Counted from the first letter of the stretch, positions 7,920 to 41,196 are shown. The stretch: DNA of 52,911 bases from a bacterium (GCA_041486265.1 JBGPLF010000001.1:1-52911), one strand, 5' to 3'. A program made the numbers and translations. Notes: generated by a model not told the origin, from the letters alone.

Positions 7920-7950
7920 TATAGTAATTCTATGACATAAAGACTATAAT

Positions 7951-8811
7951 TCACCACATCTGGGGACATGTGTCAATACGACTCCAAGTGGCCAACGCTC
8001 GGCGCCGACAGTCCCAGAGCTTCGGAGCCGTCCACACCTGGCGGCCCTTCACGAGCACTTCCTCGAGCTCGCACCGCTCGATCGCCAGCCCCGCAATGCG
8101 AGCTTGCCATCCAAACGTCGCCTGAATGTCGGGCAACTCCGCGACCCCGACGATCCGGATGTAGCGTTTCAGCACGCTTGCGGCCGCGTCTTCAGTCTTC
8201 AGGTGCCCCGCGGCCTTCACCACGTCCGGCATCCACCGATGGAACGCATCCCAGATGAACCCGTTCCGCCATTCCTCTTCCTCGCCGACCTTTGCCACCA
8301 GAAACCGCTCCTGCAAATCGTCCAGGGCCCGGTGGAACCGCGATCCGCTCTCGCCCCGCGGCACGAACTGCCGGCGGAGTGTCCACGTCGAGACGGGTCC
8401 CGAGGCCAGGATCTGCTCGTAGAGCATTTTGGAGAGCAGGCTGAGCCGCCCCTCATGGTACGCCTGCAGGTAGTCGTCGGGCTCGCCGACGTTGCCCGAG
8501 AGGGCATAGAACGCCGGGAGCATCGTTAGCGACACATAGGAGGGTTTGCGACGGATGATCTTGCCGTAGTACGCGCGGCGGGCCGTCGCCAGTTCGTCCT
8601 TCCACTGCCAGGCCCAGTTCCACATCCGGCGCATGCTGCGCGTGTCCAGCACGTCGAAGAGGCCGGGGATCCCGCCGGGTCCTCCGGTGAAGGCGTGGCA
8701 GAATCCGAGGGCGTTGATGAAACGCAGCGCCCCCTGCCGGGTCCGGACGCGATAGGGGCGCAGCACGGCGCGGCGGTATCGCGCGACGGCGGCGGGGGTC
8801 AGGGTGGGCAT
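7951..8811 (-). CDS. hypothetical protein, possibly winged-helix AlkZ/YcaQ-like
   Basis: 286-aa ORF with balanced, Trp-rich composition, unlike the Arg/Pro-rich antisense ORFs. General resemblance to HTH_42/AlkZ-like proteins is by eye only. Confidence 0.6.
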   Translation of the reverse strand: MPTLTPAAVARYRRAVLRPYRVRTRQGALRFINALGFCHAFTGGPGGIPGLFDVLDTRSMRRMWNWAWQWKDELATARRAYYGKIIRRKPSYVSLTMLPAFYALSGNVGEPDDYLQAYHEGRLSLLSKMLYEQILASGPVSTWTLRRQFVPRGESGSRFHRALDDLQERFLVAKVGEEEEWRNGFIWDAFHRWMPDVVKAAGHLKTEDAAASVLKRYIRIVGVAELPDIQATFGWQARIAGLAIERCELEEVLVKGRQVWTAPKLWDCRRRALATWSRIDTCPQMW

Positions 8812-8943
8812 CTCCTTTCGGGATACGCGGTGCGGCGGCGCGGCTCCTGGCCTCCAGAAGGGGAGAGTTCATGGCGGCACGAACCTACAAAGGCCTCGCG
8901 CCCCGGCAACGCTTCGGGCCCTTCACCGATGAGGAGTGATCGC

Positions 8944-10242
8944 ATGCAGGATGTGTACGCCTCCACGCTTCCCAACGGGCTGCACATGCTCATCCAGGAG
9001 TCGCACACCGCGCCGGTCGCTACGTTCATGCTCTGGTACCGGGTGGGAAGCCGCAACGAGACCGCGGGATTCACCGGCATCTCACACTGGGTCGAGCACC
9101 TGCTCTTCAAAGGGACACCGTCGCATCCGGCCGGCACACTGACGCGCCTCATCGACCGGCTCGGCGGCCGCTGGAACGCGTTCACCTGGAAGGACTATAC
9201 GGCGTACTTCGAGGTGCTGCCGGTTGAGCACATCGACGTGGGCATCCGCCTCGAAGCCGACCGGATGCAGAACACCATCTTCGATCCCGACGTCATCGCC
9301 GGTGAGCGTACGGTCATCATCACGGAGCGGGAGGGGGCGGAGAATTATCCTGCCTACTACCTGCGCGAAGAGGTGGAGGCGCTCGCGTTCAAAGCGCATC
9401 CCTACCGGCAGCCGGTGATCGGATGGAAAGACGATCTGCGCGCCATCACGCGCGACGACCTGTACCGGCATTACCGTACGTTCTATCATCCGTCGAACGC
9501 CACCGCCGTGGTGGTGGGGGATGTTGACATCAGACGTGTGCGCGGGGCCATCGAAGAAGCATTCGGCTCGATCCCACCAGGCGAGCCCGTCCCGCCCGTG
9601 CGTTCCGTGGAGCCAGAGCAGTCGGGCGAGCGGCGCGTTGCGCTGCGGCGTCCCGGCGGCGCCACGGCCCAGTTGCTCATGGCTTTTCACGTCCCTGCGG
9701 CGGGACATCCCGATCTGCCTTCGCTCATGGTGATGGACGGCTTCCTGTCCGGCTTCAAAGGGGTGGCGCCCTTTGACGGGGGTGGTGGAGGCCGCAGCAG
9801 CCGCCTCTATCGCGCGCTGGTGGACCGGGGCCTGACGACAGACGTGGGCAGCGGCCTGACGCCGAGCACCGATCCCACGCTCTTGCGGATCAGCGCGACC
9901 GCACGCAGCGGCGTGGATCCCGCGGCTATTGAAGCCGCGGTGCACGCCGAGATCGCGCGGCTGCAAGATGAGCCGGTGCCGCCCGCCGAGCTGAACAAGG
10001 TCAAGCGGCAGGCCCAGGCGCAGTTCGTCTATCTGCACGACGGCGTATTCCGGCGGGCGATCGCGCTCGGCGCCTTTGCCTCGGTCGACCGGCCTGAGAC
10101 CTTTTATGCTCTCGCAGACGGCGTGGCCCGCGTGAGCGCCGACGACGTCGTCCGGGCCGCGCGCACCTACCTGGTGGACCGCCACCGGACGGTCGGGTGG
10201 TACGTACCCGGGGATGGCACGCGGAAAGAGGTGGCGGCATGA
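8944..10242 (+). CDS. M16 (pitrilysin/insulinase) family zinc peptidase, catalytic subunit
   Basis: ATG at 8944 is 7 nt after GAGGAG. The inverted zinc motif HxxEH is present in ISHWVEHLLFKGT. The ORF-track start at 8695 adds a Gly/Arg-rich extension overlapping the divergent gene and is rejected. Confidence 0.9.
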   Translation: MQDVYASTLPNGLHMLIQESHTAPVATFMLWYRVGSRNETAGFTGISHWVEHLLFKGTPSHPAGTLTRLIDRLGGRWNAFTWKDYTAYFEVLPVEHIDVGIRLEADRMQNTIFDPDVIAGERTVIITEREGAENYPAYYLREEVEALAFKAHPYRQPVIGWKDDLRAITRDDLYRHYRTFYHPSNATAVVVGDVDIRRVRGAIEEAFGSIPPGEPVPPVRSVEPEQSGERRVALRRPGGATAQLLMAFHVPAAGHPDLPSLMVMDGFLSGFKGVAPFDGGGGGRSSRLYRALVDRGLTTDVGSGLTPSTDPTLLRISATARSGVDPAAIEAAVHAEIARLQDEPVPPAELNKVKRQAQAQFVYLHDGVFRRAIALGAFASVDRPETFYALADGVARVSADDVVRAARTYLVDRHRTVGWYVPGDGTRKEVAA

Positions 10243-21282: not shown

Positions 21283-22788
21283 CTACGGTGACACGGAGAC
21301 ATCAGACAGATCGAAGATCTCGGTGGCCGGCGCCTTGAATCCCTGAATCCGCGTGCGATACGCGTAGGCCTCCAGCTGGTCGAACAGGTAGATCGCGGCG
21401 ACGTCGTCCCAGAGGATTTCCTGCGCCTTGCGATAGAGCGCGCACCGCTTGTCGAGATCGATCGTCGCAGCGGCCTCATCGGTCAGGCGGTCGATCTCGG
21501 CGCTCGTGTAGAGCGTGCGCTTCGCGCGCGAGTGATACAGGCGCCGCAGCGTGAAGTCCGGATCGCCTGTCCCGCCCCCGGTCGAGACCAGTTCCAGGTC
21601 CCAGTTGAGCTTGAGCAGGTCGTCCAGCCAGATCGCGAACGCCTGCTGCGTATTCTGCACGCGCACGCCGAGCAGGGCGAACTGCCCCGTGATGGCGTCC
21701 GCGATCTCCCGCTCCTTCGGATTACTCTCGGTCCATTTGAGCGAGGTGTCGAAGCCGTTCGGATAGCCGGCCTCGGCGAGCATCTTCCTCGCCAATGTGG
21801 TGCTGTAGGCGTTGGGTTTCATCTTCGCGTAGCACAGCACATTGGTTGCGATCGACGACGTGGCCGGCGTCGCGATCCCCGCGACCAGGGAGGCTGTGAT
21901 GGCGTTGATGTTGATGGCGTGGCTGAGGGCGCGCCGGACCTGGAGGTTGTTGAGCGGGCTTCCCGGCCGGGGATTGATCCACATGATGCGCGTCAGCGTG
22001 GTCTGCCCGATGTCGACCTTGAGGGCCGGGTTCTGGCGCAGGCGCTTGATCTCTTCGGGCGGGAGCCCGACCGCCATGTCGATCTCGCCGGTCTCCAGCG
22101 CCGTGGCCCGGGCCGAGATCTCGGGGATGTCGACGAAGATCAGGCGCTGCAGCTTCGGTGCGCCCTGGCGCCAATAGTTCGGGTTCGCGTCGAGCACGAC
22201 GCGCGTGTCCCGCACGAACTCGGCAAATTTGAACGGTCCGGTACCGATCGCCCGGTCGACGATCTCCGTCATCGGCGTCCCTGCCGGGACGATCGAGAGG
22301 ATCGTCAGGTTCGACATGAGGGTTCCCATCGGGTCACGGGTCTTGATCACGACCCGGTAGGGGTCGGGCGTTTCGACGGACTCGACGGGCGCAAAGAGGG
22401 GCGCGAGCGGCCCGCGCAGCCCGATGACCCGCTCAATCGACGTCTTCACGGCCGCCGACGTGAACTCGGTCCCGTCGTGAAACTTCACCCCCCGGCGCAG
22501 CTCGAACTCCCACGTGGTGGGGGTCGGGTTCTGCCAGCGCAGCGCGAGTTCCGGCTGGAACTTTTTCGTCTCCGGATCCAGGGCGACCAGCCTGTTGAAG
22601 AGATGGCGGCTGACGATCCAGGTGATCCGCGCTGCGCCCGAACTCCCATGAGGATCAAGAGAGAGAATGCGCTGGAGATAGGCGACGCGCACGGTTCCGG
22701 GTGGGATGGCCGGGCCTGCCTGGCCCACCGTGACGACCACCGTCAGGATCGCGATCACCAGGGAAACCGTCACCCGCTGTCGTTGCAT
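21283..22788 (-). CDS. ABC substrate-binding protein, family 5 (peptide/opine/nickel type)
   Basis: 501 aa with a signal-like N-terminus. ...LDPHGSSGAA...WEFELRRGVKFHDGTEFTSAAVKTSIER... is the family-5 pattern. Confidence 0.9.
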   Translation of the reverse strand: MQRQRVTVSLVIAILTVVVTVGQAGPAIPPGTVRVAYLQRILSLDPHGSSGAARITWIVSRHLFNRLVALDPETKKFQPELALRWQNPTPTTWEFELRRGVKFHDGTEFTSAAVKTSIERVIGLRGPLAPLFAPVESVETPDPYRVVIKTRDPMGTLMSNLTILSIVPAGTPMTEIVDRAIGTGPFKFAEFVRDTRVVLDANPNYWRQGAPKLQRLIFVDIPEISARATALETGEIDMAVGLPPEEIKRLRQNPALKVDIGQTTLTRIMWINPRPGSPLNNLQVRRALSHAININAITASLVAGIATPATSSIATNVLCYAKMKPNAYSTTLARKMLAEAGYPNGFDTSLKWTESNPKEREIADAITGQFALLGVRVQNTQQAFAIWLDDLLKLNWDLELVSTGGGTGDPDFTLRRLYHSRAKRTLYTSAEIDRLTDEAAATIDLDKRCALYRKAQEILWDDVAAIYLFDQLEAYAYRTRIQGFKAPATEIFDLSDVSVSP

Positions 22789-25665: not shown

Positions 25666-27171
25666 CTACGGCCCGACGGACACCTCGTTGAGGTCGAAGA
25701 TCTCGCTCGGTGGCACCGTGAAGCCCTGGACCCGTGTGCGGTACGCGTAGCTCTCCAGCGACTCGAACAGGAAGACGGCGGGGCCTTCCGTCCAGAGGAT
25801 CTCGTTGACCCGGCGGTAGAGCTCGCACCGCTTCTTCGTGTCCACCGAGGCCGCCGCCTGGTCGAGCAGCGAATCCACCTCCGAATTGGTATACCCGGTG
25901 CGCTTCGCGCGGGAGTGGTAGAGGCGACCCAACGTGTAGTCGGCGTCGCCCGTGACCGCGCCGGTGCCGAGCAGGTTCAGGTCCCAGTTCAGCTTGAGCA
26001 GGTCGTCCAACCAGATGGCCCGCGGCTGCAGCGTATTCTTGACGCGGATACCAACGAGGGCCAGCTGGCCGGTGATCGCGTCGGCGACCTCACGCTCGCG
26101 CGGGAGTGCGTCGTTCCATTTGAGTTCGGTGTCGAATCCGCGCGGATACCCCGCCTCGGCGAGCAGCCGGCGCGCGAGCGTCGTGTTGTAACCATAGGGC
26201 TGGAAGTCGGTCGCGCAGAGCACGTTGCTGGCGATCGGCCCCATGGCCGGTTTCGCGATCCCGGCGACGAGCGAGCTGGTGATGGCGGGGATGTTCAGCG
26301 CATGCTGGAGCGCCTGCCGCACCTTCACATCGTCCCACGGCTTGTGCGTGGGGTTGATCCACAGGAATCGCGTGTAGAACGTCGGCCCAATGTCGACCTT
26401 GATCGCCTGGTTCCCTTTGAGCCGCTTGATATCTTCGGGTGTCAACTGCACGGTCATGTCGATCTCGCCGGTCTCCAGCGCGGTCATGCGGCCGGACAGC
26501 TCCGGGATGTCAACCCAGATCAGGCGCTGCAGCTTCGGGATCCCACGGCGCCAGTACGTGGAATTGGCCTCGAGGACCACTCGCGTGTCGCGGACGAACT
26601 CGACAAACTTGAACGGGCCGGTCCCGATGGGACGGTCGCCGAATGCCGCCGTCGCCGGCGTGCCCGCCGGGACGATGTACAGCAGGGTCAGGTTCGAGAG
26701 CAACGTCCCCATGGGTGTCCGGGTCTTGATGACGACCCGGTACGGGTCTGGAGTCTCGACCATGGCCACGGCGGCGAAGAGCGGCGTGATCGGCCCGCGG
26801 ATCGTCTGGGTCCGCTCGATCGATGTCGCTACGGCGGCGGAGGTGAACTCCGATCCGTCATGAAAGCGGACACCGCGCCGCAGCGAGAACTCCCAGGTCG
26901 TGGGGTCGATCGCGCGCCAGCGCTCGGCCAGCGCCGGCTGGAACTTCTTCGCCACGGCGTCCCAGGCGACCAGCGTGTCGAAGAGATGCCGGCCCAGGAT
27001 GATGGTCATGCGCTCGGCTGCCGCGGTCCCCTGTGGGTCGAGGTTAATCACCCTTTGGGGATACGAGATGCGCAGCGTCCCCGGAGAGGTCGCCGGACCG
27101 GCCTGCCCGATGCTCGTAGCGACGAACAGTGCGCTGACAAATGCCGCGACCCTTAGCCATCGCCGAAACAT
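25666..27171 (-). CDS. ABC substrate-binding protein, family 5 (paralog of 21283-22788)
   Basis: 501 aa and colinear with the other binding protein along the whole length (for example ...WEFSLRRGVRFHDGSEFTSAAVATSIER...). Confidence 0.9.
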   Translation of the reverse strand: MFRRWLRVAAFVSALFVATSIGQAGPATSPGTLRISYPQRVINLDPQGTAAAERMTIILGRHLFDTLVAWDAVAKKFQPALAERWRAIDPTTWEFSLRRGVRFHDGSEFTSAAVATSIERTQTIRGPITPLFAAVAMVETPDPYRVVIKTRTPMGTLLSNLTLLYIVPAGTPATAAFGDRPIGTGPFKFVEFVRDTRVVLEANSTYWRRGIPKLQRLIWVDIPELSGRMTALETGEIDMTVQLTPEDIKRLKGNQAIKVDIGPTFYTRFLWINPTHKPWDDVKVRQALQHALNIPAITSSLVAGIAKPAMGPIASNVLCATDFQPYGYNTTLARRLLAEAGYPRGFDTELKWNDALPREREVADAITGQLALVGIRVKNTLQPRAIWLDDLLKLNWDLNLLGTGAVTGDADYTLGRLYHSRAKRTGYTNSEVDSLLDQAAASVDTKKRCELYRRVNEILWTEGPAVFLFESLESYAYRTRVQGFTVPPSEIFDLNEVSVGP

Positions 27172-30238: not shown

Positions 30239-31132
30239 CTATCCCAGCTTCATGCGGGGGTCCAGCGCATCCCGGAGCCCGTCGCCGAGCAGGTTGAACG
30301 CCATCACGGCCAGGAAGATCGCGATGCCGGGAAACGTGGCGATGTACCAGGACGAAAAAAGATAGGTCTGGCCTTCGCCGAGCATCGTGCCCCATTCCGG
30401 GGTCGGCGGCCTGATGCCCAAGCCGAGGAAGCCGAGCCCCGCAGCCGTAAGAATCGCGGTCCCCAACTGCAAGGTTGACTGGACAATCACGGGCGCCAGG
30501 CAGTTGGGCAACACGTGGCGCGCGACGATCCGCGCCTCCGGCACGCCGAGGGCCCTCGCCGCCTCGATGTACACCTGCCCTTTGATGGACAGTGCCACCC
30601 CTCGGACCAGGCGCACGTAGACCGGCGCGGTCGCCAGGCCGACCGAGACCACGACGTTGGTGACGCCGACCCCGAGCACGGCGATGAGCGTCAGCGCCAG
30701 CAGGAACCCAGGAAAGGCCAGCATCAGGTCCACCAGCCGCTGCGTGACCAGGTCCACGATACCGCCCCGGTACCCGGAGATCAGGCCCACTGGTACCCCG
30801 AGCAGCGCCGACATCCCCACAGCCAGGATTCCGATGAGGAACGAGACCCGCGCCCCATAGACGATGCGCGTCAGCAGGTCGCGGCCGAGTTGGTCCGTTC
30901 CCAGCGGGTGCCTGGGAGATGGCCGCAAGAGCACGTGATCGAAATCGGCGGCGTTCGGGTCGTAGGGTAGGATCGCCGATGCCAGCGCCGTCGCGGCGAT
31001 AAACGCCGCCAGGACGGCCAGGCCGACAACGGCGGTGCGGTGCCGCCGGAGCCGCAGCAGCACCCCGGGCCGCCGCCGGACCGCGACTTCCGGGACCCAC
31101 CTAACCGTAGTGGATGCGCGGGTCAACATACG
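30239..31132 (-). CDS. ABC transporter permease (DppC/OppC type)
   Basis: ...LGTDQLGRDLLTRIVYGARVSF...VARHVLPNCLAPVIVQSTLQLG... The start is uncertain. The ATG at 31132 gives a 32-nt overlap with the upstream permease, and the ORF-track start is 31180. Confidence 0.85.
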   Translation of the reverse strand, partial: RMLTRASTTVRWVPEVAVRRRPGVLLRLRRHRTAVVGLAVLAAFIAATALASAILPYDPNAADFDHVLLRPSPRHPLGTDQLGRDLLTRIVYGARVSFLIGILAVGMSALLGVPVGLISGYRGGIVDLVTQRLVDLMLAFPGFLLALTLIAVLGVGVTNVVVSVGLATAPVYVRLVRGVALSIKGQVYIEAARALGVPEARIVARHVLPNCLAPVIVQSTLQLGTAILTAAGLGFLGLGIRPPTPEWGTMLGEGQTYLFSSWYIATFPGIAIFLAVMAFNLLGDGLRDALDPRMKLG

Positions 31133-32033
31133 CGTAGAGGACGTCGACCACCAGGTTGACGCCGGCAAACAGCAGCGCAAACATCAGCACGATCCCCTGG
31201 ATGACGGGATAATCGCGGGACGAGATCGCGTTCACCAGCAGGCGTCCCATCCCCGGCCAGGCAAACGTGGTCTCGGTGAGGATCGCGCCGCCCAACAGCG
31301 CCCCGAACTGTAGCCCGATCACCGTAAGAATCGGAATGAGGGCGTTCTTCAGAGCGTGGCGGAGGATGACCGCCGGCTGCCGCACGCCCTTGGCCCGGGC
31401 GGTCCGCACGTAGTCCTGATTGAAGGTCTCCAGCAGGCTGCTGCGCGTCATCCGCGCGATGATGGCGATCGAGAAGGCCGCCAGCGCGATCGTCGGCAGC
31501 ACGAAGTGCGCCGGGCCGCCGAACCCGCCGGCGGGCAGCCAGCGCAGGTACACCGAAAACAGCAGCATGAGCATCAGGCCCAGCCAGAAGACCGGGATCG
31601 ACACGCCGAACAGCGCCACACCCATGACGACGTAGTCTACAGTGGAGTACTGCCGGGTGGCGGAGACGATGCCGGCGGTCAGCCCGATCACGGTGGCCAC
31701 CACGATGCTGGAGATCGCCAGTTCGACCGTCGCCGGCATGCGCAGCCCGATCTCCTCGGCGACCGGCGCGCGTGTCACCGCGGAGATCCCGAGATTCCCG
31801 TGGAAGAGCTGTTTGAGGAAGATGCCGTACTGCACGTGGATCGGCCGCGTCAGCCCCAACTCGACGCGGATGCGCTGGACCTCTTCTTCTGAGGCGGTGA
31901 GGCCTGCGATGACGCGGGCCGGGTCGCCCGGGATCGCGCGGATGAGCAGGAAGATGAGGATGGTGACTCCGAGCAGCGTAGGGATGGCCAGCGCCACGCG
32001 GCGCAGGAGGTAGAGGCCCAGTGAGGAGGGCAT
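31101..32033 (-). CDS. ABC transporter permease (DppB/OppB type)
   Basis: MPSSLGLYLLRRVALAIPTLLGVTILIFLLIRAIPGDP... and ...DYVRTARAKGV... Confidence 0.9.
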   Translation of the reverse strand: MPSSLGLYLLRRVALAIPTLLGVTILIFLLIRAIPGDPARVIAGLTASEEEVQRIRVELGLTRPIHVQYGIFLKQLFHGNLGISAVTRAPVAEEIGLRMPATVELAISSIVVATVIGLTAGIVSATRQYSTVDYVVMGVALFGVSIPVFWLGLMLMLLFSVYLRWLPAGGFGGPAHFVLPTIALAAFSIAIIARMTRSSLLETFNQDYVRTARAKGVRQPAVILRHALKNALIPILTVIGLQFGALLGGAILTETTFAWPGMGRLLVNAISSRDYPVIQGIVLMFALLFAGVNLVVDVLYAYVDPRIHYG

Positions 32034-32112: not shown

Positions 32113-33684
32113 CTACGGCTTCCACGTGGCGTTGGACGTGTCCCACTTCTCGATCGGAAGCACCCGAACGCCCTCCAGATTCTTGACCGTGGCCACGTAC
32201 CACTTCTGGGTCCAGAGGAAGACCCAGGGCGCATCGTTCCAGATGAGCTGCTGGGCTTCCTTGTAGAGCGCCTTGCGCTTGGCGTCATCGATCGTGCTCC
32301 GGGCGTCGTTCAGGAGCTGATCCACTTTCTCGTTCTTGTAGTATGCGGGCCCCAGGCCCGTTGGCGGGTGCGCGACCGCGGAGTTGAACTGGCCATACAG
32401 GGCCCCGTCACAGTCGAGCACCGGCCAGGCCCACCCCAAGACGATCATCTGGACCCGCGTTCGGTCCGGCGGGGTCAGGATCATCCCGACGTACGATGGC
32501 CAGTCCATGGTGCTGACGTTGGCGCGGATGCCGACATTCTGGAGCTGCGCCGCAGCCGCCTGGGCGAACTGGAAGTCCTGGATGTAGCGGCCGGTCGGCG
32601 CGAAGAAGTTGACCTCGAAACCGTCCTTGTAACCCGCTTCGGCCAGGAGTTGTTTCGCTTTGATGGGATTATACGGCCAGCCGCCCTCTTGCACCGGGGT
32701 GCCGCCGAACATCATCGGCGGGCACGGCGATACCGAGACCGTGCCGAGATCGAACAGGATACTCGAGAGGATCGCCTTCTTGTTGAGCGCGTAGTTCATC
32801 GCCTGCCGCACCCGCACATCCTTAAACGGTCCCCACTGGTTGTTCAGCACCAGGAAGACCGTGCGATCGGTGGCTGCCTCCACCACATTCACACGGGGAT
32901 TCTTGCGCAACCCCTTGACATCGGGCGCCGGAGGGAGCATGGCCATGTGGACGTCTCCGGCCAGCAACTGCGCGAGCCGCGTGCCCGCGTCGGGCACGAC
33001 CCGGAAGAGCACCTCATCGAAGATGGGCTTCTTGCCCCAGTAGTTGGGGTTCCGCTCGACCAGGATGCTCTCGCCGCGCCGCCACTCCTTGAACATGTAC
33101 GGACCCGTCCCGGCGCCGGCGGGCGCCACCGAGAACCGGTCCCCGGCTCGCTGCACGGCCGCCGGCGAGAGCACCCCCGCGGTCGTCGTGCCGAGCCCGC
33201 TCAGGACGAACGGACTGGGCTGGCTCAGGGTCAGGCGGACGCTCAGGTCGCCGGACGTCTCCACGGACTTGATGGGCGCGTAGAGGTACCGGTTGGGGTT
33301 CCGCACCTTTGGGTCGAGCAGCCGCTCGATCGTGAACTTGACTGCCGCGGCATTCATCGGTGTGCCGTCGTGGAACGTGACGCCGCGCCGCAACTGGAAC
33401 GTGATGCTCAGGCCGTCTCGTGAGATCTCCCAGCGCTCGGCCAGTTTCGGTTTGATCTCGCCCGGCGCCGACTCGATATCGACGAGGGTCTCATAGAAGT
33501 AGTCCACCATGTTGTTGACGGTCGTGGTCGTTCCCCCGACCGGGTCGAGCGTGTCGGCGTCGATTCCGACGGCGATGCGCAACTGCTTGGGGACCGCCTG
33601 TGCGCCGGCCGGTGTGCCCTGGACCGAAAACAGGGCGGCCACCAGCGCGAGGACCATCCCCACGCGTGTGAGGCTTTTGATCAC
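32113..33684 (-). CDS. ABC substrate-binding protein, family 5
   Basis: 523 aa with a GTG start after GGAGGGGGG and a signal peptide-like N-terminus. ...ITFQLRRGVTFHDGTPMNAAAVKFTIERL... Confidence 0.9.
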   Translation of the reverse strand: MIKSLTRVGMVLALVAALFSVQGTPAGAQAVPKQLRIAVGIDADTLDPVGGTTTTVNNMVDYFYETLVDIESAPGEIKPKLAERWEISRDGLSITFQLRRGVTFHDGTPMNAAAVKFTIERLLDPKVRNPNRYLYAPIKSVETSGDLSVRLTLSQPSPFVLSGLGTTTAGVLSPAAVQRAGDRFSVAPAGAGTGPYMFKEWRRGESILVERNPNYWGKKPIFDEVLFRVVPDAGTRLAQLLAGDVHMAMLPPAPDVKGLRKNPRVNVVEAATDRTVFLVLNNQWGPFKDVRVRQAMNYALNKKAILSSILFDLGTVSVSPCPPMMFGGTPVQEGGWPYNPIKAKQLLAEAGYKDGFEVNFFAPTGRYIQDFQFAQAAAAQLQNVGIRANVSTMDWPSYVGMILTPPDRTRVQMIVLGWAWPVLDCDGALYGQFNSAVAHPPTGLGPAYYKNEKVDQLLNDARSTIDDAKRKALYKEAQQLIWNDAPWVFLWTQKWYVATVKNLEGVRVLPIEKWDTSNATWKP

Positions 33685-35517: not shown

Positions 35518-35847
35518 ATGGAACCCTCGATCTGGGACGCGTTCGAAGTCGTGAAGACCATCGATCGGTCGGCGCAGCAGTTTCACCGGATCCTGGAGCG
35601 GCCGGGTCTGGTCGTCGGCGTGCTCCGCGTGAGGGCCGGTGGCGTGGACACCCAGGGCGCGCACGATGAGGATGAAGTGTACGCCGTCGTCGGCGGGACC
35701 GGGCTCATCCGGCTTGGGGACGTCGATCACCCGGTGGCGCCGGGTTCGGTCGTCTTCGTCCCCAAAGACCTGCCGCACCACTTCCACGGCAACAAGGAAC
35801 TGCTGACCGTCGCCTACATGTTGGTTCCCCCAGTTCAGAGAGGATGA
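35518..35847 (+). CDS. cupin-domain protein
   Basis: ATG at 35518 is 9 nt after GGAGG. ...GAHDEDEVYAVVGGTGLIRLGDVDHPVAPGSVVFVPKDLPHHFHG... is a cupin_2-like two-motif pattern. It ends 6 nt before the CHAT gene. Confidence 0.75.
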   Translation: MEPSIWDAFEVVKTIDRSAQQFHRILERPGLVVGVLRVRAGGVDTQGAHDEDEVYAVVGGTGLIRLGDVDHPVAPGSVVFVPKDLPHHFHGNKELLTVAYMLVPPVQRG

Positions 35848-35853
35848 ACTGAG

Positions 35854-38800
35854 ATGTACACGCACGTCATGCTCCCCGTGAAACCGGCGGTGGCTGCCGT
35901 CCCGGCGCGAATGCCGCTGCGCATCATGCTCGCCTTGCCGGACAACGTGGCGGTGGAAGGCGAGGTGCCGATCTTCAATGTTCCCGGCGCGGTGGCAGCC
36001 CTGCTCGGCCGCTTCGGCTGGGAGCGCGCGGTGAAGATCTTGAGCCCGGTGGTCTGGGCACCCGGGTGGGACGACAGTCAACTTGAAGAATTCGTCAAGG
36101 CGCCCCTCCTGGGCAACCCCTGGCCGTTTCCAGAGGTGTCTGCGCCGAATCTGCGCGCCAGCGAATTTCCCGGCCACGGCGCCCTTGCGGATCTGGGCCA
36201 GCCCGACTATCCGCAGTACGACGTGATCCATGTCGTCGGCCACGTGGAGAGCCCGGCGGGCGACCCTGTGCTGCGTCTTGCGTCGACGGGTCGCGGACTG
36301 CTGCCGTCTGGAATCCTGCGGGATGCGCTGGTGGCTGCCCGGACGCGCCTGCTGATCCTGCATGTCCCGCTGTCGGAGTCCGAGGACGCGGCACGGCTGG
36401 CCCAGCTCGTCGCCGGAGGGGGTGGTCCGGCCGCTCTCTCTGTGGCGGCCGGCTCTATCTTCCAGGTAGGCATAGCCAGCAGCGGCTTCCTGCGTGTTAT
36501 GCACAAGACGCTGCGCCCGCTTCCCCCGGATCCGGAACAGGCAGGCGTTCTCGACGCCTACTTCTTCAATCTCTATGCCAACATCGTGCACAACCTGCCG
36601 CTGCCCCAGGTGATGGCAGCCGAGGGCGGGCAGGAGGCGCGTTTGATGCTCCGCCTGTTCTACGGTGAGTCCGCCGGGGATCTGCTTCAGTTCGACCGCT
36701 GCATGGATGAGCTGCAGGAGCGGTTGGAGAGCATGCGCCAGAACGTCGGTGGCCAGGCGCAGCAGTTTGGTGAGGTCCGGCGCCGGGCGGCGCGTCTGCT
36801 GCCGGTCGAGCATGCGGTGGACCTGGCGGAGGCTGCAAAGACCGGGGAAGACGCCGTCAACGCTCGTGGATTGCTGATCGACGAGCAGGCGCAGACGCTC
36901 GCGAACATCCGCCACATGACATGGCATCACGAGAGCGAGGGCGCCGTCCCCCTCCCGCATATCGCCGACGCGACCGAGATGCTCGAGGCGGCGGAGCAGC
37001 ATGGCCCAGAGCCGGCGCGGCGCGGCCTGAGGGCGGAGCCGCGTGGCCTGGGGGCGGCCCCCTCTCCTCCGGGCGCGGCCCCCGCTCCCCCGGCCGCGGC
37101 TGAACTGGAGCGGGAGCTTGCTGCGCGGGCCGCTCGCGCGCCGCGCGTCCTCAACGCCAACTTCGCCGATCCAGGCGCAGGCTCGGTGCTCAACCCGCGC
37201 CAGGCGCTGGCGGCCGCTCGCGCGTACGACCTGCTGGTAGACATCGGGCCGCGCTGGGATAAACAGAAGAGCCTGGTCACGGGGAACGCCGGCTTTCCCG
37301 AAGAGGCGCTACCGCCCGGCAAGGAGGGCTGGGATGTTCAGGCCGTACTGGTCAGCGACGACTTCACACCCAACCTGGTCTCGGCGCACCTCTGGGTACC
37401 GGCCGGCAGCGGCCGAAGCTTCCCGTTCAACGACGGAGTCCCCGCGCGGGATTCAGGCCCGGTAGCTCTTCGTGTGAACGCACCGGCGTTTCTTGAGAAC
37501 ACCGAGGCGCAGGTCATCGAGGCGCGCGGCCGGTTGCTCCTCTACTACGAGAACAACCTGCTACAGGCGGCGGTCGTCAAGGTGGGCGTCGCGCGCAGCC
37601 CGGACGTCGCGCTGGACAAGGATAACGCGGTAGAGGTGGACTTCGTCCTCAGCGGGACCTTTCAAGATGTGGACCGCCTGACGGCGCGCCGCGTGCAGCT
37701 CGTCTCCGGCGAGGAGTCCGCAGGCCATCGGGTTGCCGTGAATCTCACGCTCAACGACGATGGCGCGGTCGGCCATCGCCTGCTGGTCAAGGATGCTCCG
37801 GACGTGCCGCCGGGCTGGATCGCGTACGATCCGTTTGCGGCCAAGCAGACGCTCGACAACGTGCGCAGGCAACTGGCCGACTGCTTCTGGACCCGAGACG
37901 GGACGAACGGCACCGTCGTCACGGACTGGCGGGGCACGCCGAAAGACGGCCTGAGGCAGAATAACGGCAAGTCCCGCGATCAGTTTCTGGTGGATCTGTC
38001 GGTCCTCGCCCAGGCGGGTGAGCAGCTCTACAACATGATCATCACCCAGGTGAACACGGGCGACGGCGGGGGCGCGTGGAAGCAGTGGGACGAGGCGCTG
38101 CGGAAGGCCCTGGCGACCACGGCCGTGATCCAGGCGGCGCGCACCACGACGGTCCCGCCCTCGTATGTCTTCCCCTGGGCCCTGGTGTACGACTACCCGC
38201 TGCCCGACAAGTCCAGGCTGCGGTGGTGTGATGTCGTCAACGAATGGTCGGACGACGGCGTCCGCACCCTGCCGCCGGAACCCCAGTGTCCATTTCACGA
38301 CAGGGATTGGCATCAGAAGAACGTGCTCTGCCCCTACGGCTTTTGGGGCCTGAAGCACATCATCGAGCAGCCTCCCTCCGGGCTCTGCTCGCGGGACGGC
38401 AGCGTGCAGGTCTGCGATACCGCCAGGAAGGTGCTCATGGGCCCGAAGCTGGCCCTCGCCATCGGCGTCACGAGCGACGCCAGTCTCGATCCCAATGCGA
38501 TTGCGGGCCATCTGGAACGGCTCAGGAACATCCAGGACGTCGCGATCGCGCCGCCCGACCCCGCGGACGACTGGGCGAAGGTCTCTACGGCCCTCCAGGC
38601 TCCGGAGATCGTTTACTTCCTCTGTCATGGTGAATTCGATGCCGGTAAGAACGAGCCGTACCTCGGCGTCGGCCTGCGTGATGACAACCTGGATCACCGG
38701 GTCTATCCGAGCAGCCTGACCGCCTGGGCTCGGACGCAGGACCTCACGGCGTGGGAGAAGCAGCGCCCGCTCGTGTTCATCAACGGCTGTCACACCGCCA

Positions 38801-39072
38801 ACCTCGAGCCGGGCCAGGTGCTGAACTTTGTGACGGTCTTTACGAGATTCTGGGCGGGCGGCGTCGTGGGCACTGAAGTGAGCATCCGGCTGCCTCTCGC
38901 CATCGAGGTCGCCGAGAGGCTGCTGGACAAGATCATCCACCACACCCCCCGCATCCCTGTGGGGCAGGCGGTGCGGGACGTTCGCTGGGAGCTGGCCAAC
39001 AAAGGCAACCTGCTCGGCCTGGCGTACACGCCGTATTGCCTGGCTGACCTCCAGGTCGTACAGGATGGCTAG
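35854..39072 (+). CDS. 1072-aa CHAT-domain protein (C-terminal caspase-like protease; N-terminal Cys-less CHAT-like module)
   Basis: C-terminal dyad: His in EIVYFLCHGE (38626-38628) and Cys in LVFINGCHTA (38788-38790), followed by ...FWAGGVVGTEVSI.... The N-terminal YDVIHVVGHVE...RLLILHVPLS looks like the same fold without the Cys. A Pro/Ala-rich linker sits around aa 385-430. The Arg-rich antisense ORFs 35485-37002 and 37561-39576 are rejected. Confidence 0.8.
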   Translation: MYTHVMLPVKPAVAAVPARMPLRIMLALPDNVAVEGEVPIFNVPGAVAALLGRFGWERAVKILSPVVWAPGWDDSQLEEFVKAPLLGNPWPFPEVSAPNLRASEFPGHGALADLGQPDYPQYDVIHVVGHVESPAGDPVLRLASTGRGLLPSGILRDALVAARTRLLILHVPLSESEDAARLAQLVAGGGGPAALSVAAGSIFQVGIASSGFLRVMHKTLRPLPPDPEQAGVLDAYFFNLYANIVHNLPLPQVMAAEGGQEARLMLRLFYGESAGDLLQFDRCMDELQERLESMRQNVGGQAQQFGEVRRRAARLLPVEHAVDLAEAAKTGEDAVNARGLLIDEQAQTLANIRHMTWHHESEGAVPLPHIADATEMLEAAEQHGPEPARRGLRAEPRGLGAAPSPPGAAPAPPAAAELERELAARAARAPRVLNANFADPGAGSVLNPRQALAAARAYDLLVDIGPRWDKQKSLVTGNAGFPEEALPPGKEGWDVQAVLVSDDFTPNLVSAHLWVPAGSGRSFPFNDGVPARDSGPVALRVNAPAFLENTEAQVIEARGRLLLYYENNLLQAAVVKVGVARSPDVALDKDNAVEVDFVLSGTFQDVDRLTARRVQLVSGEESAGHRVAVNLTLNDDGAVGHRLLVKDAPDVPPGWIAYDPFAAKQTLDNVRRQLADCFWTRDGTNGTVVTDWRGTPKDGLRQNNGKSRDQFLVDLSVLAQAGEQLYNMIITQVNTGDGGGAWKQWDEALRKALATTAVIQAARTTTVPPSYVFPWALVYDYPLPDKSRLRWCDVVNEWSDDGVRTLPPEPQCPFHDRDWHQKNVLCPYGFWGLKHIIEQPPSGLCSRDGSVQVCDTARKVLMGPKLALAIGVTSDASLDPNAIAGHLERLRNIQDVAIAPPDPADDWAKVSTALQAPEIVYFLCHGEFDAGKNEPYLGVGLRDDNLDHRVYPSSLTAWARTQDLTAWEKQRPLVFINGCHTANLEPGQVLNFVTVFTRFWAGGVVGTEVSIRLPLAIEVAERLLDKIIHHTPRIPVGQAVRDVRWELANKGNLLGLAYTPYCLADLQVVQDG

Positions 39073-39110
39073 TAGAACGCTTGCCGGTGCCCGGAGCCCC
39101 GGTGGAAACC

Positions 39111-39449
39111 TCAGCCCGGCCGTGTTGGCCGGGGCGGGATGGGGACGCCGCCGCCGCCCGGGCTCGAGCCTGGCTCCGCGCCCAGCCAGTCCGGCGCACC
39201 AGGCCTGACCGCGACGATCAGGTAGCCGAAGAACCCGACGGCCAGCCCGACGCAGTAGGCTCCGAACGCGCCCGTCTCCTTGGGGAAGAGACCCGTCACC
39301 GTGGCTCCCCCGATCGCCCCGATCACCGTCGTAAGGTCGGTAAGACTGTTGCGCTGGGCGCGGCGCAGTGTCCCATAGGTAATCCAACCCACGACCACGC
39401 CGAACAGCAGCGCGCCAATCAGAGTGACCGCTGCTATGGATCCCGTCAT
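39111..39449 (-). CDS. small integral membrane protein (about 3 TM helices, Gly/Pro-rich tail)
   Basis: 112 aa. The hydrophobic segments are IAAVTLIGALLFGVVVGWI, VIGAIGGATVTGLF and FGAYCVGLAVGFFGYLIVAV. It lies 29 nt downstream of thyX on the same strand. I recognise no family. Confidence 0.55.
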   Translation of the reverse strand: MTGSIAAVTLIGALLFGVVVGWITYGTLRRAQRNSLTDLTTVIGAIGGATVTGLFPKETGAFGAYCVGLAVGFFGYLIVAVRPGAPDWLGAEPGSSPGGGGVPIPPRPTRPG

Positions 39450-39478
39450 CGCGCCTCCTCCTATTGCGGGAATTTGCG

Positions 39479-40990
39479 CTAGCGCGTGCTGGGCGTCGGG
39501 ATCCGCGCCCGGCCCGCGGCGACCTCCGAGAAGAACCGCGCCTCCAGCTCCGCCCCCGTAGGCGGCTCGTAGCCAAACTGGACGTGGGCCACGAGCGCGG
39601 GGTGCACCGCGCGTACCGCTTCGTAGACGAGCATCGCGATCCGCCGGTAGGAGAAGTGCCCGGCCTCGCGTGCGCGCACCGGCACGAGGCTGTAGAGTTC
39701 GCGGAGGTTCATCGTTGCCAGGAAGCGCCGGTTGTGGGCATTCGTCACCAGGTAGGCCGCTTCACGGGGGAAGTCGTGCGCGATGGCGCGCGCGGCATCG
39801 GTTGCCCGGTCGATCGCATCGCGGAACCGATCGCCGAAACCCGCCTCGTCAATCGCCCGCGGGACCGCATACCCAAGCTCCACCGTGGGAGCCTGCGGAC
39901 TCTGCGTCATCATGCGGTGCCGCTTGAGATCGAAGTAGGCGCCCTGGTCGCACACAACGTCGAAGGTATACGATGTGTGCTCCAATTCGCGCAGCGGCGT
40001 GTCGTGTCGCTCCAGGCGTCCGAGCGTCGCTTCGATGACCCTCAATCGCTCAGCCGGGGACATGCCCGAGACCTGCGTCCAGGCCTCTGTGTACGGTACC
40101 CCGCTGTGGCGGTAGAGACTGGCCGCCGCGATCCGCGTCTCCGCGTCGCGGTCGTAGTGGATCAGGCGGACGCTCGTCGTCTCGGCTGTCTCGTCCGGCG
40201 AGCCGGCCTGGCCGATGACTTCGCTGGCCGCGGCTTCCAGCGCGCCGGACGTCTCCATGAGATAGCGGTTCGGGTTGGCGTACTTGACCAGCGTCGGGAC
40301 CTCGGTCTGCGCCACCTGCTTGATCTCCATCCCGATCGTGCGAACCTCATCGAGCGGATGTGAGAGCATCTTGGTGATCGCGTGCTCAAGGGCCCGCGCG
40401 TTCGCGGTCATCCCGACGTTGGCCACCGTTGCGCACGGCAGCAGGAACCGGCAGACGTCGACGTACTTCGAGCGGAGCCGCGATGCGTGGGCCCGCTCGA
40501 CCTCGTCCCCCCGGCGCGGGTACCAGGCTTCGATCACCCGGCGCACCGGCTCGAGGCTGGCATGATAGGTCTCGAAGAGTAGCCGGCAGGTGGCCACGTA
40601 TCGGTCGGCGTGGACCGATGCCGCGATCGCCTCGGGGACGTAGAAGGTGTCGAAGATCTGATACCGGGTGGACTTCTCCGTGTACGAGCAGAGGCGGTTG
40701 CTCTCGAGGCATTCAATCGCCAAACGCGACAGATTCTCCAAGGCCAGGTGCAGGACGGCATGTTCAGCCACCGAGGCGTGGCCGTAACCCAACACCCACT
40801 TCTCATGGAACTCGCTGGACTGCGCCTCGCTGAGTTCGGCCGCGATCTCCCGGAACGGCTTGGGGCTTCGCGAGGTCTTGGCGAAGGCCACGGCTATAAC
40901 CTCAGGGGGAAGGAGCCTGGGGCTAAGGAGGTAGATGTCGCGAAGTCGCTGCGATGGAGTTCCGTCTACGGAGGCGAACTGTGGGTGCAT
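39479..40990 (-). CDS. thyX: tandem-domain FAD-dependent thymidylate synthase ThyX-like protein
   Basis: ATG at 40990 follows GGGGGAAGG. The first half has GHASVAEH and SNRLCSYTEKSTRY (40661-40702), so the SxxxxSxRY part is kept and RHR is degenerate. The second half has FDLKRHRMM (RHR at 39914-39922) without SxRY. Confidence 0.75.
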   Translation of the reverse strand: MHPQFASVDGTPSQRLRDIYLLSPRLLPPEVIAVAFAKTSRSPKPFREIAAELSEAQSSEFHEKWVLGYGHASVAEHAVLHLALENLSRLAIECLESNRLCSYTEKSTRYQIFDTFYVPEAIAASVHADRYVATCRLLFETYHASLEPVRRVIEAWYPRRGDEVERAHASRLRSKYVDVCRFLLPCATVANVGMTANARALEHAITKMLSHPLDEVRTIGMEIKQVAQTEVPTLVKYANPNRYLMETSGALEAAASEVIGQAGSPDETAETTSVRLIHYDRDAETRIAAASLYRHSGVPYTEAWTQVSGMSPAERLRVIEATLGRLERHDTPLRELEHTSYTFDVVCDQGAYFDLKRHRMMTQSPQAPTVELGYAVPRAIDEAGFGDRFRDAIDRATDAARAIAHDFPREAAYLVTNAHNRRFLATMNLRELYSLVPVRAREAGHFSYRRIAMLVYEAVRAVHPALVAHVQFGYEPPTGAELEARFFSEVAAGRARIPTPSTR

Positions 40991-41196
40991 AGCCTTCCCC
41001 CTGGGGTCTCCCACTGATTCCGCATGGACCGGCGAACTCCTGCTCGGTTTCTCAGCATCTTGTGGCGGTGACTCGATCGTTCCTCAAGATGTCGTAGGGG
41101 GCGACCGAGGATCGCCCCCTGGCCGCGGCGGGCGGTGCGCCCCCGGCGCGCGTCCCGCGGGCAGGAGACCGCCGTCCCCGCGGCCAAGAGCACCGC

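Follow-up and report, generated by a model that had tools for sequence, protein, structure and literature searches.

A CHAT protease and a small membrane protein form a widespread two-gene module

Introduction

The EACC1-caspase system, which is itself a computational prediction, is a two-gene unit found mainly in Actinobacteria. Its membrane gene lies 5' of the protease gene, in the same direction, and encodes a protein with a single transmembrane (TM) helix that has its own Pfam family. The protease carries its caspase domain at the N-terminus and variable domains at the C-terminus. The TM protein has been proposed to sense a signal at the membrane and activate the protease. In bacterial gasdermin systems, Johnson et al. 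(bioRxiv 10.1101/2021.06.07.447441; Science 2022) describe neighbouring proteases that remove a short inhibitory C-terminal peptide from the gasdermin. The transmembrane anti-sigma factor DdvA, which contains a CHAT domain, regulates defence loci (PMC11506125); it combines this domain and a TM helix in one polypeptide and partners with an ECF sigma factor. The eukaryotic protease separase works without a membrane partner and is controlled by securin and CDK.

Here, we analyse a locus of a bacterial genome in which the gene of a CHAT protease adjoins that of a small membrane protein (SMP). The two genes are a widespread and previously undescribed two-gene module.

Results

Genes at the locus

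The locus lies in the window, i.e. the whole stretch of 52,911 nucleotides that was analysed, and involves three consecutive genes:

35518..35847, plus strand: cupin gene (Cupin_2), 109 aa, identified by a Pfam match; it adjoins the CHAT gene here only
35854..39072, plus strand: gene of a multidomain CHAT cysteine protease (clan CD, caspase-like), 1072 aa, from the ORF and its translation
39111..39449, minus strand: SMP gene, 112 aa, the conserved partner, from translation, hydropathy and alignments

The 1072-aa ORF is a real gene: its GC3 is 0.83 and it has full-length homologs, at 38-47% identity. A profile search with the CHAT protein retrieved 1321 representative clusters at E < 1e-30, and its AF2 model has a mean pLDDT of 77.5. 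The SMP gene is convergent with it, with 38 nt between the stop codon and the SMP gene. The genes around the pair have core housekeeping functions (the nuo operon, ThyX and ABC transporters). In line with the initial annotation of this DNA, there are no genes for TPR proteins, NTPases, Cas proteins or cyclases within about 10 kb of the CHAT gene; the CHAT protein is without the customary TPR, NTPase or Cas partners. There are also no cas genes among the genes scanned in the 52.9-kb window, no Csx30/31 genes near the CHAT gene, and no TPR repeats in the CHAT protein (Pfam scan). We rejected a type III-E TPR-CHAT identity on the lack of TPR matches and of cas genes among the genes scanned.

The end of the cupin gene and the ATG of the 1072-aa ORF are 6 nt apart, an arrangement correctly described before, and the cupin matches Pfam Cupin_2 (PF07883) at 34.2 bits (cutoff 27.2). 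The initial annotation took the cupin for the only coupled gene, with an adjacency expected to recur in homologs, and inferred a ligand-gated or self-contained module without recognisable partner system. The comparison of loci gives a different picture. Searches with tblastn found the cupin at 0 of the other loci, and there is none among 17 Pfam-annotated upstream neighbours. Being missing from every other locus examined, it was rejected as a member of the module; it is an unrelated bystander, and a ligand-gated mechanism based on it is therefore without comparative support. The strictly conserved partner is instead the membrane protein encoded at 39111-39449 on the minus strand, which had been overlooked.

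The conserved core of the CHAT protein

The C-terminal part of the protein contains the following features:

37141..37833, plus strand: beta-sandwich (Ig-like) region, aa ~430-660, all-beta in the AF2 model; first part of the conserved core
37951..39069, plus strand: CHAT protease domain, aa ~700-1072, from Pfam CHAT and Foldseek
38227..38358, plus strand: Cys-rich insert CDVV...CPFHDRDWHQKNVLCPYGFWGLKH inside the CHAT domain, a candidate zinc site from its conservation
38626..38628, plus strand: codon of the catalytic His925 (FLCHGEF), invariant in 52 full-length relatives
38788..38790, plus strand: codon of the catalytic Cys979 (INGCHTA), invariant in 52 full-length relatives

The last ~370 aa make up a CHAT protease of caspase fold whose dyad is intact. 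The His and Cys had been placed correctly from the DNA alone, and both are invariant in the 15-sequence and the 52-sequence alignments alike. In the AF2 model H925 is within strand 919-929 and C979 ends strand 973-979. The Pfam CHAT model (PF12770) matches aa 906-1048 of the window protein at 18.7 bits (E = 1.2e-3), below the 24-bit cutoff, which is exceeded by unambiguous full-length or core homologs (P0045, 24.2; P0065, 27.7; P0073, 30.2; P0145, 36.8; P0149, 44.0; P0133, 83.4 bits); the N-terminus has no match. Foldseek searches of the PDB returned 24 matches at E ≤ 1e-3, all of them separase, Csx29/TPR-CHAT, SAVED-CHAT or DdvA, with probability 1.00. The best is separase (SPD, 5fby; E = 3.5e-8, 609 aligned columns); E is 1.4e-7 for Csx29, 1.6e-6 for SAVED-CHAT and 1.8e-6 for DdvA. 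Judging from the invariant dyad and the fold matches, the protease looks active.

The Cys-rich insert comprises C792, C812, H820, C826 and H835. The three cysteines are invariant and the two histidines are kept in at least 90% of the 52 full-length relatives, a pattern suggesting that the insert may bind a metal, with zinc as the candidate. For the beta-sandwich region, Foldseek gives weak matches to the Ig folds of fusexin and pilus chaperones, and the region contains invariant motifs, e.g. RVLNANF and GPRW. The core of the profile-search matches starts at this region (aa ~430). Hence, the conserved unit consists of aa ~430-1072, i.e. the beta-sandwich and the CHAT domain with its Cys3-His insert, plus the SMP.

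A swappable N-terminal module

Three further features precede the core:

35854..36678, plus strand: N-terminal alpha/beta domain, aa 1-275, family-specific (AF2 pLDDT 87, pTM 0.88)
36694..36999, plus strand: long helical (coiled-coil-like) region, aa 281-382, with helices 281-315, 318-353 and 366-382 (DSSP on the AF2 model)
37006..37086, plus strand: disordered Pro/Ala-rich linker, aa 385-411, pLDDT < 50, a gap in homologs

The protein had initially been read as a double CHAT, with an inactivated module at its N-terminus separated from the active one by helices and a linker. The strand motifs behind this reading, YDVIHVVGHVE (aa 122-132) and TRLLILHVPLSE (aa 164-175), are present, and so are the helices (281-382) and the Pro/Ala-rich linker (385-411), the latter a lineage-specific insertion that homologs lack. 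The C-terminal CHAT assignment holds (Foldseek, dyad), but the N-terminal module has no significant profile or structural match to caspases. The domain (aa 1-275) has no Pfam match, and Foldseek gives nothing below E = 1e-3 in PDB or BFVD. Among sub-significant matches, MALT1 is at rank 6 in the PDB (E = 0.068) and four of the top ten in BFVD are giant-virus caspase-domain proteins (E 0.018-0.17); Rossmann-type dehydrogenases match equally well. hhalign aligns the domain with the C-terminal CHAT so that the catalytic strands coincide, at sub-significant values (P = 0.016, probability 2.8%); the control, CHAT against a genuine C14 domain, reached no better than P = 0.049. Across the 52 full-length relatives R165 does not vary and H126 hardly does. 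Neither of the two catalytic residues is conserved in the domain, which may be a degenerate caspase-like fold devoid of the catalytic dyad.

The N-terminal module occupies a swappable slot. In relatives this slot holds TIR (4 proteins), TIR-STAND-TIR, trypsin, Ser/Thr kinase, WD40 or LysM/SH3 domains and, in one relative, a genuine Peptidase_C14 domain. Many relatives keep the core and the SMP with the module missing or swapped, and it is therefore no obligatory part of the protease mechanism. Some 500 residues lie between the N-terminal and C-terminal modules.

The small membrane protein and its pairing with the protease

Hydropathy analysis of the SMP shows three hydrophobic segments, corresponding to three TM helices of the glycine-zipper type, with a loop carrying an RR (positive-inside rule) and a predicted cytosolic C-terminal tail. 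The tail contains one conserved motif:

39180..39188, minus strand: W88-L-G90 motif of the SMP tail, with W88 and G90 invariant in the alignment

In short-form systems, to which the Streptomyces locus L024 belongs, the protein stops 2-3 residues past this motif, while long forms continue with a variable Gly/Pro tail of 9-43 aa. The SMP has homologs in at least 1767 clusters and is under strong purifying selection, its conservation exceeding that of the protease. When 45 SMP members were compared with Pfam, the matches were just sub-threshold ones to generic TM segments, with none at E ≤ 1 to EACC1 or to Transgly_assoc (GlsB/YeaQ/YmgE). Membership of the EACC1-caspase system was rejected on this result and on the three TM segments, and a GlsB/YeaQ/YmgE identity on the missing Pfam match. 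JGI labels some SMPs GlsB/YeaQ/YmgE, without a match to the Pfam family.

Starting from the CHAT gene, 26 independent loci were reached, and in 24 of them the SMP gene adjoins it; all five loci reached from the SMP have a CHAT gene next to it. Overall, the adjacency is found in 31 of 33 loci, with L018 and L027 being the CHAT loci that lack an adjacent SMP. The pair occurs in Acidobacteriota, Chloroflexota, Planctomycetota, Proteobacteria, Actinomycetota (including a Streptomyces isolate) and one Thermoplasmatota archaeon, a patchy distribution that crosses domains. Its orientation varies by lineage (convergent, or same-strand with the SMP upstream or downstream) and is mostly convergent. That adjacency is kept while orientation changes argues for a link between the two at the protein level. 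At one locus (L023) a CHAT core protein carries, fused to its N-terminus, an SMP-like segment with three TM helices (hhalign P = 1.1e-4).

Everything beyond the pair differs between loci, and we found no third conserved gene in the neighbourhoods examined, nor a linked sigma factor or regulator. Several loci are close to transposases, T4SS genes, HicA, or DUF87 and PLD genes, although these cases are anecdotal. At L001 and L006, as in the window, the pair lies among genes of core metabolism or the ribosome. Searches with the 5027 models of PADLOC-DB v2.0.0 gave no match for the CHAT protein, the cupin, two SMPs or nine tested neighbours; in fused relatives the TIR or STAND parts match and nothing else does.

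Discussion

Possible functions of the pair

The initial annotation suggested a role of the CHAT protein in conflict or regulated proteolysis, and this is plausible. We put at about an even chance that the CHAT protease and the SMP make up a membrane-coupled caspase-type conflict module, akin to bacterial immunity or cell-death systems, a reading drawn from sequence, structural models and analogy. The protease would be cytoplasmic and the SMP would oligomerise in the inner membrane, where the [W/F]-[L/M]-G tag at its cytosolic C-terminus would dock the protease. The SMP could then act as a membrane-embedded regulator or sensor of the protease, and infection or membrane perturbation, for example, might trigger the His925/Cys979 dyad. 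Once active, the protease would cut its own linker between the domains and so set the N-terminal module free, or else cleave the SMP or cellular targets, with growth arrest or cell death as the end result. Fusions to TIR, STAND, caspase and trypsin domains are typical of conflict systems. Together with the mobile-gene neighbours and the patchy spread, the N-terminal fusions give the family the signature of a conflict system. The PADLOC nulls, the housekeeping surroundings in the window, which is not a defence island, and the SMP-less loci L018 and L027 count against this reading.

The roles could also be reversed, with the SMP as the output. The N-terminal or beta-sandwich modules of the CHAT protein would sense an invader, the protease would cut the SMP tail, and the SMP helices would form a lethal pore, as in gasdermin systems. 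A system reduced to its conserved minimum, the core and the SMP, requires an output, and small glycine-zipper TM proteins, which the SMP resembles, are typical membrane-disrupting effectors. The WD40, STAND and LysM fusions of relatives look like sensors, which fits the SMP as output rather than sensor. Yet the TIR, caspase, trypsin and kinase fusions are apparent effectors already present on the protease, and the SMP is already integral in the membrane and more conserved than the protease; we regard this scheme as rather unlikely. A cut at or near the W-L-G-x-E-P motif of the cytosolic tail, freeing the glycine-zipper helices, is similarly doubtful. The 9-43 aa tail of long forms does recall the inhibitory C-terminal peptide of bacterial gasdermins, but short forms end 2-3 residues beyond the motif and have no tail to cut off. 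A motif at the extreme C-terminus is more easily explained as a docking tag than as part of an inhibitory tail that is cleaved off.

A housekeeping role, in which the pair performs regulated membrane proteolysis in envelope or stress signalling or in development (cf. DdvA, HetF), seems unlikely as well. It would explain the core metabolic or ribosomal neighbours in the window, L001 and L006, the lack of PADLOC matches, the presence of DdvA among the top Foldseek matches and the strong purifying selection on the SMP. It is harder to reconcile with a neighbourhood that is not conserved beyond the pair, a patchy distribution that includes an archaeon, the mobile-element genes adjoining several loci, the TIR, STAND, caspase and trypsin fusions, and the lack of a linked sigma factor or regulator. 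Finally, the model of the initial annotation, where the cupin binds a ligand and gates a double-CHAT protein whose N-terminal pseudo-protease imitates the second subunit of a caspase dimer, is largely refuted by the comparative data and very improbable: the 6-nt gap suggests co-transcription in this genome, and the sub-significant caspase hints (hhalign, BFVD, MALT1) and the relative with Peptidase_C14 would fit it, but the cupin is missing at every other locus, and the N-terminal module, without significant caspase match or conserved catalytic residues and ~500 residues from the C-terminal one, is lost or replaced in relatives with core and SMP, so that protease activation does not require it.

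Comparison with described systems

Separase shows that an active caspase-like module can be accompanied by a degenerate one. Its pseudo- and active domains are contiguous, whereas here the candidate pseudo-domain is ~500 residues upstream and dispensable in relatives. Csx29 of the type III-E Craspase and the SAVED-CHAT proteins of type III CRISPR/CBASS-like signalling share the protease fold and the His/Cys dyad with the window protein. However, the window system is without TPR, SAVED, cas, cyclase or Csx30/31, its accessory parts differ (beta-sandwich, Cys3-His insert) and its partner is a membrane protein. DdvA likewise places the CHAT fold in a membrane setting, but the module described here is without a linked sigma factor, and its TM element is encoded separately, as a protein with three TM helices, except in the L023 fusion.

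Bacterial gasdermin systems also have a caspase-like or CHAT protease beside a membrane-acting protein, tying proteolysis to the membrane. The module described here is without gasdermin fold: the only conserved neighbour of the CHAT gene is the SMP, an integral protein of ~110 aa with three TM helices, and the PADLOC bGSDM models gave no match. Moreover, short forms have the tail motif at the extreme C-terminus, unlike the removable gasdermin peptide.

Among described systems, the predicted EACC1-caspase system is the closest analogue. Both are two-gene units of a small, conserved, Gly-rich TM protein and a caspase-superfamily protease, and both proteases are fused to many variable domains (TIR, peptidases, STAND, repeats). 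This reflects a shared logic, not homology: the SMP has three TM helices instead of one and does not match EACC1. In our module the CHAT domain follows the beta-sandwich at the C-terminus, the variable domains occupy the N-terminus, and most of the gene pairs are convergent. In contrast to the mainly actinobacterial EACC1, it comes chiefly from Acidobacteriota and further phyla of soil bacteria.

The CHAT gene and its protease domain

The CHAT gene and the features within and around it are as follows.

35518-35847 (+): cupin gene, 109 aa (Cupin_2, 34.2 bits against a Pfam cutoff of 27.2)
35854-39072 (+): CHAT gene, 1072 aa, its ATG 6 nt after the cupin stop codon
36460-36525 (+): insertion in the CHAT protein, aa 203-223
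37006-37086 (+): insertion in the CHAT protein, aa 385-411
37561-39576 (-): antisense open reading frame, 671 aa
38227-38358 (+): Cys-rich insert inside the CHAT domain, ...CPYGFWGLKH
38626-38628 (+): His925, within FLCHGEF
38788-38790 (+): Cys979, within INGCHTA
39111-39449 (-): gene of the small membrane protein (SMP), 112 aa, three transmembrane (TM) segments
39180-39188 (-): codons of the W-L-G motif of SMP

The coordinates and sequence strings of the initial annotation were correct, including the cupin gene and its distance to the 1072-aa frame. The latter has a GC3 of 0.83 and the codon-position GC pattern of real genes, in a window of about 66% GC, and homologs exist over its full length. 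The antisense frame runs across the 3' portion of the CHAT gene and all of the SMP region; it is rich in Arg, Gly and Pro and looks like a high-GC shadow of the coding strand rather than a gene.

Both ends of the protein had been read as CHAT-like modules. Pfam retrieved only the C-terminal one (aa 906-1048), and this at 18.7 bits, below the cutoff of 24. The segments searched separately (aa 1-249, 250-429, 430-769 and 770-1072) gave nothing else in Pfam and no match in NCBIfam, and a profile search against PDB sequences returned only coiled-coil noise. Despite the sub-threshold score, the assignment of the C-terminal CHAT protease is secure, because three lines of evidence agree. Homologs of the core (the beta-sandwich region and CHAT) exceed the Pfam cutoff, with 24 to 83 bits. 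A Foldseek search of the PDB with the AlphaFold2 model (mean pLDDT 77.5) gave 24 matches at E ≤ 1e-3, all at probability 1.00 and all to separase, Csx29/TPR-CHAT, SAVED-CHAT or the CHAT-containing anti-sigma factor DdvA (top match 5fby, E = 3.5e-8). Finally, neither His925 nor Cys979 varies among full-length relatives, first in a set of 15 and then in one of 52.

The Cys-rich insert is a candidate zinc site, judging from its residues: C792, C812 and C826 are invariant among the 52 relatives, and 90% or more of these have H820 and H835. Such a site is not known to be usual in CHAT domains. The Pro/Ala-rich linker was also found as described, disordered in the model (pLDDT < 50 for aa 385-411) and falling in a gap of the homologs. 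It coincides with one of two lineage-specific insertions of low confidence, the other being aa 203-223 (pLDDT < 50 as well); both are missing from most homologs. One relative, P0017 (798 aa), is a frameshifted P0008, identical over about 485 aa and out of frame afterwards, and looks like an assembly or sequencing artefact, not a separate architecture.

The N-terminal domain

The strings YDVIHVVGHVE and TRLLILHVPLSE both lie in the N-terminal part of the protein, which was initially taken for an inactivated protease mimicking the caspase dimer partner. Modelled alone, this domain reaches a pLDDT of 87 and a pTM of 0.88, and Foldseek found nothing below E = 1e-3 in the PDB or BFVD. The PDB list consists mainly of Rossmann-type dehydrogenases and the integrin beta-I domain, with the MALT1 paracaspase sixth (E = 0.068) and a legumain-like ligase 29th. 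In BFVD, four of the ten top matches are caspase-domain proteins of giant viruses (E 0.018-0.17). Aligned with hhalign, the N-terminal and C-terminal CHAT profiles gave P = 0.016 (probability 2.8%), with the His strand, the PxLxLG segment and the strand after it in register; as a control in the same set-up, comparison of the true CHAT profile with a bona fide C14 domain reached only P = 0.049. Neither catalytic position is conserved: H130, which aligns with H925, varies among homologs, as does the equivalent of Cys979, which is Pro172 in the window. The conserved residues are H126, R165, G190-P192 and H246. A word-indexed search for the domain elsewhere, with alignment A5, retrieved four fragments of the same family only and was uninformative.

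A degenerate caspase-like fold is plausible here, with about equal weight for and against. The initial annotation was right that the Cys position is not Cys. On comparison of the relatives, the module cannot be an obligatory pseudo-dimer partner of the active CHAT domain, because it is absent or replaced in many of them.

The partner gene

Loci of relatives came from three sources: exact-protein lookup, a scan of one genome per species (22 loci) and searches that started from SMP. The cupin had been named as the only coupled gene, with conserved adjacency in homologs as a check. The claim did not survive the comparison: tblastn of the cupin against 32 loci gave nothing better than E = 1.1, and Pfam found a cupin in no upstream neighbour of the relatives' CHAT genes. 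These upstream genes all differ, and include an aminotransferase, a TPR protein, MerR, DUF4177, a PMT glycosyltransferase, M1 and S51 peptidases and a transposase, among others. On this comparison of neighbourhoods, we regard the cupin as a bystander. A cupin-CHAT 'operon' is thus a tempting but wrong inference, here corrected for annotation.

The SMP gene, convergent with the CHAT gene and 38 nt beyond its stop codon, adjoins CHAT in 31 of 33 loci (24/26 independent loci from the CHAT side and 5/5 from the SMP side). All-against-all clustering of the open reading frames of the 33 loci revealed no third conserved gene; beyond the CHAT and SMP clusters there were only shadow frames. SMP is better conserved among relatives than the CHAT protease (46-65% identity vs 38-47%), and its family comprises at least 1767 clusters at 90% identity.

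In two loci the convergent genes share 4 nt at their 3' ends (L007:9315-9318 and L015:2949-2952), and in other relatives the gaps are of 0-90 nt. Because of this, the two transcripts must overlap in antisense, which could allow mutual regulation.

A conserved core and an exchangeable N-terminus

An exhaustive search with the family profile returned 4767 representative clusters with E ≤ 1e-3, of which 1321 reached E ≤ 1e-30. Many matches cover only profile positions ~375-1016, corresponding to aa ~430-1072 of the window protein, i.e. the beta-sandwich region and CHAT. The N-terminal regions of these core-only matches are diverse: TIR (P0073, P0087, P0108, P0115), in P0087 as TIR-STAND-TIR, WD40 (P0099), LysM (P0047), a trypsin-like peptidase (P0113), a Ser/Thr kinase (P0123), Peptidase_C14 (P0145) and SH3 (P0115). 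Short forms of 690-840 aa occur in Actinomycetota (including a Streptomyces isolate), Chloroflexota, Proteobacteria and one Thermoplasmatota archaeon. They also adjoin SMP, which in many cases lies upstream or downstream in the same orientation. Because the short forms keep SMP next door while the N-termini vary, what is constant in these sequences is CHAT with the beta-sandwich region, plus SMP. An exchangeable slot is filled in the window protein by the alpha/beta domain and coiled coil, one of several occupants.

In one Acidobacteriota metagenome-assembled genome (L023:4396-9262), a 715-aa CHAT-like gene, an SMP gene (6577-6900) and a CHAT core gene (6917-9262) stand in tandem on one strand. 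The CHAT core protein carries at aa ~45-110 an SMP-like three-TM segment (hhalign P = 1.1e-4 over 65 columns, a type of score that TM segments inflate). This is possibly a gene fusion with local duplication of the module. Such a fusion would hint, in the manner of a Rosetta stone and with the same caution about TM segments, at a physical association of the two proteins.

Features of the small membrane protein

SMP contains three hydrophobic stretches in which small-xxx-small (glycine-zipper-type) spacing is frequent, an invariant Arg-Arg after the first helix and an invariant Asp where helix 2 begins. By the positive-inside rule, the Arg-Arg places the N-terminus presumably outside and the C-terminus inside. 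The predicted cytosolic tail holds an invariant W-x-G, with the consensus DWLGxEP.

The forms of SMP and CHAT co-vary, as seen in the SMP tails of alignment A6 and in loci L019-L026. Long-form CHAT (with the alpha/beta domain and coiled coil) pairs with SMPs having a variable Gly/Pro-rich tail of 9-43 residues (median 26) beyond the motif, the window included, and the genes are convergent. Short-form CHAT pairs with SMPs that stop 2-3 residues beyond the motif (e.g. ...EWLGSGD, ...NWMGDV), and the genes are often co-directional.

SMP matched no Pfam family and no PADLOC model. We considered EACC1, Transgly_assoc/YeaQ/YmgE and holins, and rejected them: none had a supported Pfam match, and 45 members gave sub-threshold TM noise only.

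Genomic context and proposed function

The surroundings of the pair in the window are of the housekeeping kind. Its neighbours are genes for FAA hydrolase, cupredoxin, peptide ABC transporters, ExoD, ThyX, a NUDIX hydrolase, a cysteine desulfurase-type aminotransferase and the nuo operon, and the window carries core chromosomal genes. As first noted, no TPR, NTPase, cas or cyclase gene is found near the CHAT gene. Rfam and ARAGORN detected no regulatory RNA, tRNA or integration site in the window, and consensus scans for promoters and terminators around the pair stayed at background level. Further features of the region are:

21283-22788 (-): family-5 peptide/nickel solute-binding protein, inferred from size and position
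25666-27171 (-): the same, confirmed by Pfam
30239-32033: ABC permease genes
32113-33684 (-): third solute-binding paralog, confirmed by Pfam
39479-41014 (-): ThyX (Thy1), 511 aa, just beyond SMP

The three solute-binding paralogs (two of 501 aa, one of 523 aa) lie within 13 kb, in what is a transporter-rich core region, not a defence island. ThyX has about twice the usual length and two Thy1 stretches, and may be tandem-duplicated or fused.

Some loci of relatives are mobile or defence-like, with TraG/T4SS and AAA_5, transposases with HicA and SNase, an rve integrase, DUF87 with PLDc_2, or a C14 caspase with a TPR-CHAT gene. In the last (L007:1-5125), a Peptidase_C14 gene (at least 709 aa) and a 1253-aa TPR-CHAT gene lie directly upstream of the CHAT protein P0009, giving three caspase-superfamily genes in a row, and a subtilisin (S8) gene lies downstream of SMP; PADLOC matched neither the TPR-CHAT nor the S8 gene.

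The pair combines a constant Gly-rich SMP, a constant caspase-superfamily protease, an exchangeable N-terminal slot, a patchy spread across phyla and domains, and neighbourhoods that have only the pair in common. Together, these features typify the conflict systems of prokaryotes, by which we mean those of abortive infection or of programmed cell death. In the model that we adopt, SMP would use its C-terminal W-L-G tag to hold the protease against the inner side of the membrane and to regulate it there; the His925/Cys979 dyad would fire on a signal from the membrane or from an infection; and the output would be proteolysis of the protease's own linker, its N-terminal module or cellular targets. 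We give this tether-and-fire model, taken whole, an even chance. Somewhat more tentatively, the family, with more than 1300 clusters (50% identity) in bacteria and archaea, may be an undescribed and widespread system of immunity or programmed cell death, in which the three-TM SMP controls, or is controlled by, the CHAT protease via the W-L-G tag, with TIR, caspase, trypsin, kinase and STAND as exchangeable N-terminal modules. If true, the family would represent a new axis of membrane-to-caspase signalling, separate from the caspase systems that involve gasdermin, EACC1, CRISPR or Thoeris.

A role outside conflict, in membrane proteolysis or signalling, would fit the housekeeping context of the window and the results of PADLOC, which identified no known defence system among the components and nine neighbours; set beside the typical conflict features of the pair, we consider it unlikely. 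We judge it equally improbable that, in the manner of gasdermin systems, the protease cuts off the tail of SMP and so unleashes a pore; long-form SMPs have a tail to cleave, but short-form ones have none past the motif, which speaks against this scheme. The cupin-gated double CHAT protein originally proposed is scarcely credible with a cupin that never recurs. Overall, the initial observation was largely right; its interpretation was partly right on the protease and wrong on the partner, and the pseudo-protease is unproven. We conclude that this large uncharacterised two-gene family of CHAT plus a three-TM protein is best classed as a membrane-associated, caspase-type conflict system.

Comparison with known systems

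It is becoming clear that bacterial immunity relies on caspase-family proteases as central executioners, as in Craspase, SAVED-CHAT cascades, type IV Thoeris and gasdermin activation. The CHAT-SMP module would add a version in which a very small integral membrane protein is the one partner that stays constant, which points to a direct coupling of membrane state to caspase-type proteolysis. This makes the finding more interesting than a lone orphan CHAT protein. The family is large and occurs mostly in soil bacteria; PADLOC lacks it, and no Pfam family matches its partner protein. It offers a simple two-gene test system, with H925, C979 and SMP W88/G90 to mutate and a named Streptomyces isolate (locus L024) as carrier.

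We found no description of a CHAT and three-TM pair in the literature, our coverage of which is incomplete, so a prior description is possible. The only published analogue that we found is the EACC1-caspase system, itself a computational prediction, in which, as proposed, a Gly-rich protein with a single TM helix perceives a signal at the membrane and switches on a caspase, which in turn sets fused effectors free (PMC7159879). The CHAT-SMP module would follow the same logic with different parts: SMP has three TM helices instead of one and does not match EACC1, the protease domain is a CHAT placed at the C-terminus, accompanied by a beta-sandwich region and bearing a Cys-rich insert, the exchangeable modules sit at the N-terminus, and the genes are mostly convergent.
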